The position numbers and the translations under genes were made by a program. Below, piece after piece: positions 1 to 1,988 of a stretch of 1,988 nucleotides of DNA (positions within the stretch are counted from its first letter, which is position 1; each line of letters begins with the position of its first letter). Under the pieces are notes generated by a model. The model was not told where the DNA came from and did not search any database. It worked only from the letters and a program-made list of their open reading frames with translations. This DNA comes from Enterobacteria phage P2-EC58, in the sequence record AJ512683.1; one strand, given 5' to 3'.

Positions 1-30
1 AATCCTGAATGGCCGGAAATGCCGAAATAA
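1..30 (+). CDS. G: 3' end of an upstream gene running off the left edge; probably the tail-fibre assembly chaperone of a P2-like phage (last 9 codons NPEWPEMPK plus TAA stop)
   Basis: In-frame codons aat cct gaa tgg ccg gaa atg ccg aaa end at TAA (28-30). The C-terminal peptide resembles what I recall of P2 gpG-type tail-fibre assembly proteins, and the position immediately upstream of the FI start matches P2 gene order (H-G-[Z/fun]-FI). Only 9 codons are visible, so the identification rests on recollection and synteny. Confidence 0.5.
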   Translation, partial: NPEWPEMPK

Positions 31-63
31 GTTGTATGAGCTCTGGTGTGAGCTGACATATCT

Positions 64-120
64 ATGGCACAGAGTAAAGCCTAATCTGACAGTCCGCTCT
101 GTGCCATGAGCGGACTGTCA
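64..120. terminator. Two overlapping, mutually exclusive inverted repeats between convergent genes: stem A 64-74/97-107 (11 bp, 22-nt loop) and stem B 87-99/108-120 (13 bp, 8-nt loop); possible bidirectional terminator or protein-binding palindrome
   Basis: Base pairing checked by hand: tggcacagag (65-74) is the reverse complement of ctctgtgcca (97-106), and gacagtccgctc (88-99) is the reverse complement of gagcggactgtc (108-119). Neither strand has a U-tract after the stems, so intrinsic-terminator function is uncertain. Confidence 0.35.
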
Positions 121-314
121 ATCAACAGATTTACGTGTAAATCTTGAAGCTATACATATTTACTTTCAATGATAAATAAAAGAACCACCCCAAAATCACT
201 GAAAGTATATTTTAACTAACCACCTGCAACTACTAACATTAATTTCACTCAACCTCAAAGAGTCGTAATTAAAATGATATGTGTAGCAATTTGCCTCGAT
301 ACGAATCATATGAA

Positions 315-1013
315 TTATATTTTTCCATGCTTTTCACCGTCAAATCGAATCATGCCAGGATCAAGAAAATAAATCAAATCAATTAACGCATGTTGTATTC
401 TGATTAGCCTTTCTTTATAAGGCTCGATATTTTTTGTCAAATTTATCACTTCATTGTTTAAATCTAAAAAAAATGGTTCATTGACAAAGCAATTTTCCTT
501 TGTGAAACCGCCGTAACCTATGCAATCAAATCCAGCATCTGTTGATATCAACATCTTTTCCGCAATAGCTCTCTGCTCTCCTATGAAAAACATAAAATAC
601 TGACCAAAGGCGTCTGTTTGGATTAATGAGTTAATATTGTTCTGTAATCTAATAAACTCCCTCATTTTTTTATTTTTTTCTAGACTAAGGTATTGAATGT
701 CTATGCGGGCGGCTTCTGTCCATGCAAAGAACTGGGAAAAAAGAAAAACCGTGTTTTTGATAACATAATCTTGTTGGCGCTTACTCCCATTATGATAAAA
801 CTCTTCAATAAACCCTAATTCTAATATGTTATAAATGCGGCTTTGTAAGTCTGAAGCTGAGCGAATTAACGGTTCAATATAGTACTGATGTTTTCTCCTT
901 ACATCCAGTGTTTCATTGAGCTTGTTTATTCTATTCTGATTATAGGTAGATATAGCAATAGAGATTATAGATATTGCACCACCAATAAGGCTTGAAATTA
1001 ATGCCACACTCAT
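315..1013 (-). CDS. Hypothetical membrane-anchored protein, 232 aa, with one N-terminal transmembrane helix and a soluble domain of unknown function; candidate anti-phage or phage-exclusion protein in the position of P2 Z/fun
   Basis: ORF of 232 codons in AT-rich DNA, where stop codons are frequent and long ORFs are unlikely by chance. ATG at 1013-1011 is preceded by AAGGA (complement of 1021-1025) with a 7-nt spacer. Residues 3-24 (VALISSLIGGAISIISIAISTY) are uniformly hydrophobic, followed by a basic stretch (NQNRINK...RRKH), which by the positive-inside rule suggests a cytoplasmic C-terminal domain. Stop is TAA at 317-315. Function is inferred from genomic context only. Confidence 0.85.
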   Translation of the reverse strand: MSVALISSLIGGAISIISIAISTYNQNRINKLNETLDVRRKHQYYIEPLIRSASDLQSRIYNILELGFIEEFYHNGSKRQQDYVIKNTVFLFSQFFAWTEAARIDIQYLSLEKNKKMREFIRLQNNINSLIQTDAFGQYFMFFIGEQRAIAEKMLISTDAGFDCIGYGGFTKENCFVNEPFFLDLNNEVINLTKNIEPYKERLIRIQHALIDLIYFLDPGMIRFDGEKHGKI

Positions 1014-1020
1014 CTAAAAG

Positions 1021-1025
1021 TCCTT
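1021..1025 (-). promoter_or_regulatory. Shine-Dalgarno sequence (AAGGA) for the 232-aa gene
   Basis: Minus-strand sequence reads aatcAAAGGActtttagATG; the spacer to the start codon is 7 nt. Confidence 0.7.
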
Positions 1026-1084
1026 TGATTTTCTTGGTTAACAAAATGACATGGTTTTATTTAATGTCGCAGCAACTTAATAAT

Positions 1085-1118
1085 ACACCATGATATGATT
1101 ATTATGGTGTGATTTTTC
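1085..1118. promoter_or_regulatory. AT-rich hairpin or palindrome (stem 1085-1095/1100-1110, 4-nt loop) followed by TTTTT on the + strand; lies about 70-100 nt upstream of the cargo gene start on the opposite strand; operator-like, or a weak + strand terminator
   Basis: acaccatgata / tattatggtgt pair over 11 positions, one of which (1092 g with 1103 t) is a G.U wobble in RNA and a mismatch in DNA; followed by gatttttcgc (1111-1120). Confidence 0.3.
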
Positions 1119-1466
1119 GCATCTGTAATCCATTACAAACAGATGCAAGGTATAACTTGTCTATTTTCAGTCAGAAAATTCGTAAACATCCAAAGTAGCC
1201 TCATCAAACTCTTAAAATTCTATACGTTTGAGTGTAAAGATTTTAAATCCAGCTGCGTGGTATCGACTCAACTTTATTATGTTTTTTATTTGTAATTAAA
1301 GGTTGCATTATTTTCGATAATAAATCATCACAAGATTGAAATATGGTTTCACTTGATGCAATGTTTCATGTGGTCCAGCGATTTGAGTTACACCCAGCTG
1401 TACGGGTAATATAAATCAAATTGATGAACTTTTGATGCACTCCTCTCTCTTCATTACTTTATGTTT

Positions 1467-1500
1467 TTGCTCTCAAAAATATCTTGCTCTCTGAAAATTA
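1467..1500. repeat. Imperfect tandem direct repeat, two copies of TTGCTCTC(TG)AAAAT(A), period about 16 bp, preceded by a polypyrimidine run (tcctctctcttc, 1441-1452)
   Basis: Copy 1 ttgctctcaaaaata at 1468-1481 and copy 2 ttgctctctgaaaatta at 1484-1500, read directly from the sequence. Confidence 0.4.
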
Positions 1501-1817
1501 TTCTTTAAGTTAAAAGTCGAGGACTGCATGAGTGTTAGATACAAAGCTAATATGTTGAAATGTTTTTCATCTCCCCATAACGGCATTATTATCTAAAACA
1601 TTTACACAAATATAGGATTACCCCTTTAACGTAAACTAGGAATCAAGTTAACACCATTATATATATCATAAACATGATATTTTGTATATTTTTATCATTT
1701 AGCCTTGATTGTACAGGGCGTACTCTCAACGAAGTAGGGAAAGTCTGTTTTTCGCTCAAAGCAGACTGTCAGATTTGATAGCGTTTTGGCTATGTAAATT
1801 GTCAGTCGGAAAATGAG

Positions 1818-1835
1818 TGTGTACAAATCAGGACA
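1818..1835 (+). promoter_or_regulatory. TGT-N12-ACA dyad (TGTgtacaaatcaggACA), matching the consensus activator site of P2 late promoters bound by Ogr-type zinc-finger activators; candidate element of the FI late promoter
   Basis: Exact TGT at 1818-1820 and ACA at 1833-1835 with a 12-nt spacer. It lies about 125-140 nt upstream of the FI start codon, but it overlaps the 5' arm of the terminator stem and no clear -10 element was found, so the assignment is tentative. Confidence 0.25.
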
Positions 1836-1862
1836 GGCGGGCAGATTGCCCGCCTTTTCTTT
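1835..1862 (+). terminator. Rho-independent terminator on the + strand: 8-bp GC-rich stem (aggcgggc / gcccgcct), 5-nt loop (agatt), then T-tract ttttcttt
   Basis: Pairs 1835-1842 with 1848-1855 verified by hand (7 G:C plus 1 A:T), immediately followed by a T-run through 1862. The minus-strand version lacks a good U-tract, so it is oriented for + strand transcripts. Confidence 0.7.
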
Positions 1863-1958: not shown

Positions 1959-1988
1959 ATGAGCGACTATCATCACGGCGTGCAGGTG
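1959..1988 (+). CDS. FI: 5' end of the contractile tail sheath protein gene of a P2-like phage (first 10 codons MSDYHHGVQV); continues off the right edge
   Basis: atg agc gac tat cat cac ggc gtg cag gtg translates to MSDYHHGVQV, which I recognise as the N-terminus of P2 gpFI; a good RBS sits upstream. GC content rises again here relative to the cargo. Confidence 0.8.
   Translation, partial: MSDYHHGVQV

Follow-up and report, generated by a model that had tools for sequence, protein, structure and literature searches.

A decayed neighbor gene best explains the gene-free stretch in the Z/fun cargo slot of phage P2-EC58

Results

Organization of the cargo slot

We analyzed a 1,988-nt stretch of DNA from Enterobacteria phage P2-EC58 (AJ512683.1), hereafter called the window, in which an initial annotation had singled out positions 1014-1834 as an AT-rich gap with no credible gene. 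The window is the Z/fun locus of a P2-like prophage, a cargo slot in the interval between the tail fiber assembly gene G and the tail sheath gene FI, with conserved inverted repeats on both sides (Table 1). Gene annotations were taken from Escherichia coli GDAR2-2, which carries a near-identical locus. P2-like phages match the window at its two ends only. The 3' end of G shares 93-95% identity with P2-EC67 and Wphi, and comparison with these two phages (AJ512685 in the case of P2-EC67) places the backbone at positions 1-113 and 1742-1988. The insert thus spans approximately positions 114-1741, and it contains one intact gene, which is encoded on the minus strand. The Z-region of P2-EC67 occupies the same G-FI slot and is bracketed by the same two repeats, left and right, which are 93-94% identical to those of the window; its cargo, likewise AT-rich, carries the annotation of a putative lysogenic conversion gene. 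The cargo itself differs, however, being a 303-aa ORF1 on the plus strand in P2-EC67 and orf44 in Wphi.

Table 1. Features of the window and the evidence by which each was assigned
Feature	Position	Strand	Basis
Tail fiber assembly gene G, 3' end, P2-type	1-30	+	GDAR2-2 annotation 'tail fiber assembly protein'
Z/fun 'left inverted repeat', backbone	3-113		AJ512685 repeat_region 3-115, 93% identity
Cargo gene, intact, 232 aa	315-1013	-	ORF list; RefSeq name 'lysogenic protein'
Spacer between pseudogene and cargo gene	1014-1170	-	Matches other copies of the cassette only
12-bp A+T-rich hairpin followed by ATTTTT, terminator-like	1084-1111	+	dG -14.1, z = -4.1
Pseudogene, ~150-aa family with predicted PD-(D/E)xK-like fold	1171-1572	-	Codon-anchored alignment to intact genes; blastn
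Probable former 5' flank of the decayed gene	1573-1741	-	No ORF; matches cassette alleles only
Z/fun 'right inverted repeat', backbone	1742-1834		Aligns with AJ512685 repeat_region 1255-1345
Intrinsic-terminator-like hairpin, backbone, just upstream of FI	1835-1855	+	9-bp G+C-rich stem and T-run
Start of tail sheath gene FI	1959-1988	+	'phage tail sheath protein' in GDAR2-2; FI in Wphi

In the left repeat, two nested hairpins (positions 64-107 and 87-120) are supported by the perfect inverted repeats I13 and I24, and another inverted repeat, I1, pairs positions 83-119 with 1739-1775. The right repeat is 94-95% identical to the corresponding sequences of P2-EC67 and Wphi, whose cargo differs, and harbors a hairpin at 1742-1767 (dG -12.4 kcal/mol, z = -2.4). 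We compared the window to a close relative, L037, which is 98% identical overall and aligns without gaps. Here, the right repeat accounts for 10 mismatches in 93 positions, as against 29 in 1895 elsewhere (p = 6e-6), and judged from this alignment it is likely that the right repeat represents a recombination junction. The terminator-like hairpin that follows (dG -20.5 kcal/mol, z = -5.4) is kept in P2-EC67 and Wphi despite their other cargo. A likely role, as we assume, is to keep transcription that originates in the V-G late operon or in the cargo from reaching the FI late promoter. The initial annotation had also recognized this hairpin, and had concluded from it that something in the gap, or read-through from G, is transcribed toward FI. 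The hairpin is real, but as a backbone element that is present whatever the cargo, it is uninformative with regard to a gap-specific transcript.

The absence of a credible ORF from positions 1014-1834 was borne out by our analysis. The longest entry for the gap in the ORF list is a GTG-initiated ORF of 61 aa on the minus strand (1695-1880), which crosses the P2 backbone repeat and the terminator, and no RefSeq annotation lies under the gap among the E. coli matches listed. The gap is also AT-rich, as had been proposed (G+C about 0.31, ranging from 0.28 to 0.34 over positions 1001-1800), but the cargo gene has the same composition, and AT-richness thus marks the entire insert rather than the gap, with the backbone at a G+C of about 0.45. 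The span singled out initially is mixed: positions 1014-1741 belong to the insert, and the last 93 nt (1742-1834) are conserved P2 backbone. The gap is made up of four parts, namely a spacer forming the 5' region of the cargo gene, a pseudogene, the former flank of this pseudogene, and the backbone repeat.

The surviving cargo gene

The 232-aa cargo protein has a hydrophobic N terminus (by eye) and matches phrog_5606 in PHROGs (E = 6e-149); Pfam and NCBIfam contain no match. In PADLOC, residues 69-205 weakly match the RTasTM profile (PDLC03799, E = 1.4e-6, 26 bits), a likeness to DRT systems that lies in this weak profile match. Unlike DRT and UG-Abi systems, the window contains neither an RT ORF nor an RT remnant, and the gene calls at ten loci sampled for the cargo family include no RT. 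A reverse transcriptase remnant, a candidate prompted by the RTasTM match, was found neither in the ORF list nor by tblastn; the remnant upstream of the cargo gene is instead that of a ~150-aa nuclease-like gene, as outlined below.

The cargo gene, whose family numbers about 250 members, is under purifying selection, with dN/dS values of approximately 0.25 and 0.12 in comparison with two other alleles. More distant homologs were found in Erwinia, Providencia, Lonsdalea, a Xanthomonadaceae contig and two other contigs, where the gene has 0-360 nt of upstream sequence and unrelated neighbors. Three of these neighbors (a DUF2971 gene in Providencia, a 248-aa gene in Erwinia and a KTSC gene in the Xanthomonadaceae contig) were tried as sources of the remnant in the gap, and their tblastn matches were not above chance.

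A decayed gene upstream of the cargo gene

We scanned metagenome contigs with a conserved block of the gap and obtained six loci. One of them, L023, matches window positions 1412-1568 only, and the cargo gene is absent there. The sequence in L023 that matches the gap falls within an intact ORF of 163 aa. Searching four independent intact genes of this ~150-aa family with positions 1171-1572 by blastn returned E-values of 9e-29 (L023), 2e-21 (L030), 4e-20 (L028) and 2e-18 (L025). A codon-anchored alignment of the four intact genes with three alleles of the gap, from the window, from the ST131 clone of E. coli and from L012, covers the full coding length (codons 1-151). In this alignment, the window allele shows 11 frameshifting indels, five premature stops (at 1569, 1512, 1500, 1368 and 1214) and a start codon changed from ATG to AGA, and its deletions add up to 51 nt. 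One of them, 11 nt long and located at 1401, takes out part of the stretch containing D60 and E71-C72-K73, which is discussed below. The ST131 allele has six frameshifting deletions, including deletions of 11 and 26 nt, and has lost its start codon, but it contains no premature stop. The L012 allele has a single 1-nt deletion, no premature stop and an intact start codon, and retains 86% amino-acid identity. All six deletion sites of the ST131 allele are common to the window allele, and the gene was thus already dead in their common ancestor.

In tblastn searches with the protein, the L012 allele was recovered in two adjacent frames with an E-value of 1e-73, and the ST131 allele with 7e-15 (scaled to 1 Gb). 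For the window allele alone, tblastn at the same scaling gave no match to the protein with an E-value of 0.01 or lower, in keeping with its more advanced decay. We assigned it by its nucleotide matches to the intact genes and by the chain leading through the ST131 and L012 alleles. Taken together, the segment is homologous to the intact genes along most of their length, carries disabling lesions, and has diverged at close to the neutral rate. We put the probability at about 90% that positions 1171-1572 are an ordinary decayed gene, with spacer, former flank and backbone making up the rest of the gap. The initial annotation had listed the decayed remnant of a former partner gene among several options. 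A remnant is indeed present, over about half of the span and on the strand of the cargo gene; the word 'partner' did not stand up to the comparisons described below.

The same annotation had considered small proteins of under 50 aa. The longest ATG-initiated ORF surviving in the gap measures 50 aa and lies outside the ancestral frame, no ORF is conserved between the alleles, indel lengths do not keep to multiples of three, and the stretch diverges at least as fast as synonymous sites. We found no support for small proteins here. Two gene calls in L012, of 63 and 61 aa, are the two halves of the frameshifted gene rather than small proteins.

The intact family is predicted to be nuclease-like at the level of its fold

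Intact members of the ~150-aa family are widespread, with 1,472 homologs at 60-79% identity in Dickeya, Yersinia, E. coli TA054, Pectobacterium, Vibrio, Nitrosomonas and others. The family could not be named from its sequence, as Pfam, PADLOC, NCBIfam and the solved structures in the PDB are all without a match; in PHROGs, only phrog_7353, a fragment family of 55 residues, matches the N terminus. An AlphaFold2 model of the intact family calculated from a 30-sequence alignment reached a pLDDT of 88.4 and a pTM of 0.82. The top Foldseek matches of this model in the PDB all have a PD-(D/E)xK fold, but the matches are weak (E-values of at least 4.6e-3, TM scores of 0.46-0.52), the best being the XisH-like protein 2okf, the CdiA-CT nuclease toxin 4g6v, Cas4 SSO0001, Cdn1 and AF1548. 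Across 30 diverse family members, D60 and E71-C72-K73 do not vary, which fits the catalytic D...(D/E)-x-K motif. The likeness to PD-(D/E)xK proteins such as 2okf and 4g6v thus consists of the best structural matches of a confident model and of the invariant D60/E71-x-K73; in contrast to this, a match at the sequence level is lacking, and nuclease activity is a prediction only. Given the weak structural scores and the invariant residues, we restrict the term nuclease-like to the fold class.

The genomic contexts of the intact genes vary. The E. coli TA054 member, EAXG_01575, adjoins a gene for a Cap4 nuclease, another intact member is found as cargo beside the tail fiber assembly gene of a P2-like prophage, the members from Yersinia and Vibrio have differing neighbors, and the L023 member stands alone. 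The decayed gene has thereby led to a highly conserved and uncharacterized family, predicted to be nuclease-like, that recurs as mobile cargo.

Distribution of the two-gene cassette

A first count of 996 genomes matching the gap is misleading, because about 580 of them match only the backbone piece at 1742-1834. The insert-specific part, 1014-1741, occurs in 413 genomes and in two alleles, one of which is that of the ST131 clone. Approximately 750 nt of the gap are found at 81% identity in 409 genomes, essentially all belonging to this clone. The ST131 copy does not lie between G and FI but in another island, directly upstream of a 91%-identical 232-aa gene. A third allele, represented by L012-L014 (three sequencing runs), lies in yet another context, where a gene with 83% protein identity is preceded by a homologous stretch of about 800 nt. 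Searches of 50,697 phage records and 72,556 plasmid records gave no match to the insert. A cassette with both genes intact was absent from species-representative genomes, metagenomes, IMG/VR, phage records and plasmids, the scan of species-representative genomes yielding one weak Yersinia match only. These comparisons indicate that the repeat-bracketed cassette has moved between the P2 tail-gene slot and two non-P2 locations, one of them a locus fixed in the pandemic ST131 clone.

We investigated whether the two genes belong together. They share a strand and are separated by 157 nt, an arrangement found in all three alleles; the cargo protein weakly resembles the RT-associated membrane protein of DRT systems, and the intact ~150-aa family has a nuclease-like motif and a predicted nuclease-like fold. 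One could thus imagine a former two-component system composed of a nuclease and a membrane effector, with the surviving gene being the orphan of a degraded defense system. However, in reciprocal tblastn over all loci retrieved, this cassette, in its three alleles, was the only place where both families occurred, and they were never adjacent in 11 other contexts sampled. Elsewhere, intact ~150-aa genes are carried as cargo on their own, one of them by a P2-like prophage, and the IMG/VR, metagenome and species-representative scans yielded no cassette in which both genes are intact. In addition, the cargo gene has remained under purifying selection after the death of its neighbor (dN/dS 0.12-0.25). 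We consider a former two-component system unlikely. Linkage of the two families is confined to this cassette and hence does not support a functional partnership; most likely the two genes are independent cargo that happened to be stacked.

Sequence divergence and constraint

We compared the divergence of the gap with that of the adjacent gene. The gap stretch differs by 18% from the ST131 allele and by 35% from the L012 allele, the corresponding values for synonymous sites of the adjacent gene being 14.6% and 45%. Against L012, the gap stretch is 64.9% similar and hence falls below the third codon positions of the gene (73%). The alignments contain 12 (ST131) and 84 (L012) gap columns. On average the stretch is unconstrained, diverging at or above the synonymous rate of the neighboring gene.

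Within the gap, the rate of change is uneven. In comparison with L037, the pseudogene body has 14 mismatches in 402 positions (3.5%) and the cargo gene 4 in 699 (0.6%; p = 7e-4); the body is free to drift. The two flanks together have 3 mismatches in 326 positions as against the 14 in 402 of the body (p = 0.026), and a similar gradient is seen between the window and ST131, with identities of 77.5% for the body, 82.7% for the spacer and 88.2% for the upstream flank (p = 0.006). The slower flanks may reflect a retained function, or chance at such counts.

The initial annotation had raised the possibility of a functional non-coding RNA, antitoxin-like or regulatory, acting with the membrane protein. 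The slower flanks would be compatible with such an RNA, as would the fact that a stretch of about 750 nt accompanies the cargo gene in three genomic contexts, but descent from a two-gene cassette accounts for this co-travel entirely. The best structural candidate is the stable hairpin at 1084-1111, which is kept in ST131 through C-to-T changes that preserve pairing, as G.U pairs, on the plus strand only. No equivalent of this hairpin is evident in the L012 alignment (by eye). Rfam searches on both strands at E <= 10 returned best scores of 14-21 bits, which is chance level when compared with gathering scores of 40-115. No 30-nt bin exceeds 74% three-way identity between the alleles, no ORF is conserved, and the average divergence does not fall below the synonymous rate. 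Distant cargo homologs do with only 0-360 nt upstream. A non-coding RNA is thus an extremely improbable explanation for the gap. Tandem or direct repeats of the kind found in type III toxin-antitoxin loci or CRISPR arrays were also sought, and only short two-copy matches were seen.

The 5' region of the cargo gene

The promoter and operator of the cargo gene, also suggested initially, probably do lie in the gap, in the proximal ~75-157 nt, but they do not fill it. Our search for promoter-like sites found TTGACT-17-TATATT in L012 (10/12 consensus positions) and TTGTTA-18-TAAAAT in ST131 (9/12) at homologous positions near the cargo gene. The window has a weaker version, TTATTA...TAAAAC (by eye), which scores below the scan threshold. 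Judged by consensus, the cargo gene probably has its own promoter at approximately 1085-1054 on the minus strand. A Shine-Dalgarno sequence, AAGGA, is located at about 1021-1025, 7 nt before the cargo ATG (by eye). The first 30 nt upstream of the ATG are 97% conserved in comparison with ST131, and the spacer has a single mismatch in 157 nt in comparison with L037.

These sites and their conservation could be taken to mean that the whole stretch is promoter, operator and long 5' UTR, retained for regulation. They account for ~75-160 nt and not for 730, however, and the rest can be aligned, codon by codon, to a protein-coding gene; cargo homologs elsewhere suffice with 0-360 nt upstream. We regard a purely regulatory stretch as highly improbable. 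On the far side of the pseudogene, positions 1573-1741 are 88% identical to ST131 and about 59% identical to L012. This segment presumably holds the old promoter of the dead gene; a scan of its minus strand found no promoter-like site.

Discussion

Our comparisons are best explained by a cassette in which a ~150-aa PD-(D/E)xK-like gene once would have immediately preceded the 232-aa cargo gene, both being read in the same direction. After its death in the ancestor shared by the window and ST131 alleles, the ~150-aa gene would have drifted neutrally and lost about 11% of its length through small deletions. Positions 1014-1170 would then represent the old intergenic spacer, today the 5' region of the cargo gene that survived, and positions 1573-1741 the former upstream flank of the dead gene. 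The segment 1742-1834 is the right-hand one of the inverted repeats flanking the Z/fun slot, followed by the backbone terminator ahead of the FI operon; positions 1742-1855 are identified as backbone by their identity to other P2-like phages. Read in this way, the gap requires no new RNA or regulatory mechanism, and a false lead is removed.

About 400 nt of dead sequence have persisted without large deletions over a dS of ~0.16-0.7, which is long for bacterial junk DNA.

The pseudogene is probably without a residual role. Nevertheless, its long survival and the slower change of its flanks leave room for one, for example as a promoter, a long leader or a silencing target. It is conceivable that the carcass has been co-opted, the old promoter in 1573-1741 now driving the cargo gene through a leader of about 550 nt, or the AT-rich body acting as a platform for silencing or antisense transcription. 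Co-option would explain the near-full-length retention of the body and its flanks in three contexts over a dS of about 0.2-0.7 as well as the slower change of the flanks, and a silencing or antisense platform could keep a potentially toxic membrane protein off until phage infection. We consider this very unlikely, and favor the ordinary decayed gene.

Decayed genes of this kind are already known from P2-like prophages. A recent survey of 1,511 such prophages found at least one pseudogene in 98% of them (PMC13586616, NAR 2026). About half of the pseudogenes were in defense-associated loci, approximately 90% were detected as intergenic sequence, most of them being 'very small' pieces, and most resembled genes of unknown function (PMC13586616). 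The same study describes a cargo hotspot within the tail genes (PMC13586616). Our gap shares with these pseudogenes that it is an unannotated intergenic stretch in a P2 accessory locus with homology to a gene of unknown function, and it is a further example of an intergenic pseudogene in the P2 cargo hotspot. It differs from the very small pieces in that the remnant is close to full gene length (about 400 of 459 nt). Positions 1171-1572 should accordingly be marked as a pseudogene in genomes carrying the cassette. A second difference is that graded decay is visible across three alleles, which carry 1, 6 and 11 frameshifts. The cassette thus provides a clean and dated case of cargo erosion, in which one gene is maintained under selection and its neighbor decays stepwise.

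Genomic Contexts of the Cassette

We found the complete cassette not only between G and FI, but also without any G/FI surroundings. In the ST131 clone, one copy lies inside a fixed island, where it adjoins ImmA/IrrE and LprI genes. Another copy occurs in a third context, with genes for an EAL-domain protein and an AlpA-like protein nearby. The cassette comprises the cargo gene and the nuclease-like pseudogene, along with parts of the left and right inverted repeats of the P2 Z-locus. The repeats seem to be mobile together with the cargo, which suggests that cargo exchange takes place inside them. We compared the window to its close relative L037, which is 98-99% identical apart from the backbone right inverted repeat. 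This repeat (1742-1834) carries 10 mismatches in 93 positions versus 29 in the remaining 1,895 (p = 6e-6), an excess that gives it the look of a junction where cargo and backbone have recombined.

The cargo slot of some P2-like prophages is flanked by a tail fibre assembly gene and gpU, which face each other across it. An intact copy of the ~150-aa nuclease-like gene occupies this slot in loci L028/L029, and a homolog of the 232-aa cargo protein occupies it in a Providencia locus (L005), each together with a different companion gene. The two families are therefore sampled independently by one and the same P2-like slot.

Coordinates of the cassette and of associated features
Feature	Sequence	Position	Strand	Remark
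Whole cassette	window	33-1762
Whole cassette	L002	3030-4759
Whole cassette	L012 (third allele)	about 3200-4924
Cargo protein, 232 aa	window	315-1013	-	intact
A+T-rich hairpin, 12 bp, then ATTTTT	window	1084-1111	+	70 nt upstream of cargo start codon
Intact ~150-aa gene copy	L028/L029	4001-4489		with NOV_C gene
232-aa homolog	L005	5001-5699		with DUF2971 gene
248-aa gene	L004 (Erwinia)	3894-4640		same strand as cargo-gene homolog

The Cargo Gene and Its Neighbors

No family was found for the 232-aa cargo protein in Pfam or NCBIfam. Residues 69-205 give a weak match to the PADLOC model RTasTM (E = 1.4e-6), a DRT reverse transcriptase-associated membrane protein; no reverse transcriptase was found among the called genes of ten sampled loci of this family.

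In the 83% allele (L012), the nuclease-like gene is broken only by a 1-nt deletion within an A/T run at position 3577 (CAAAAAAT-ATAG), and gene callers report two ORFs of 63 and 61 aa in its place. The same deletion is present in L013 and L014, in three separate sequencing runs. The PHROGs family phrog_7353 (55 positions) may be built from such fragments, because its match is limited to the N-terminal part of the gene.

The hairpin upstream of the cargo gene is stable on the plus strand only, antisense to the gene. It is retained in ST131, with C-to-T changes generating G.U pairs; L012 has no evident counterpart.

A cargo-gene homolog in Erwinia sp. AG740 (61% identical) is preceded by a 248-aa gene, of which the window contains no trace. 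This gene may represent a distant paralog or a partner of the cargo gene; by eye, the N-terminus of its product is apparently hydrophobic too.
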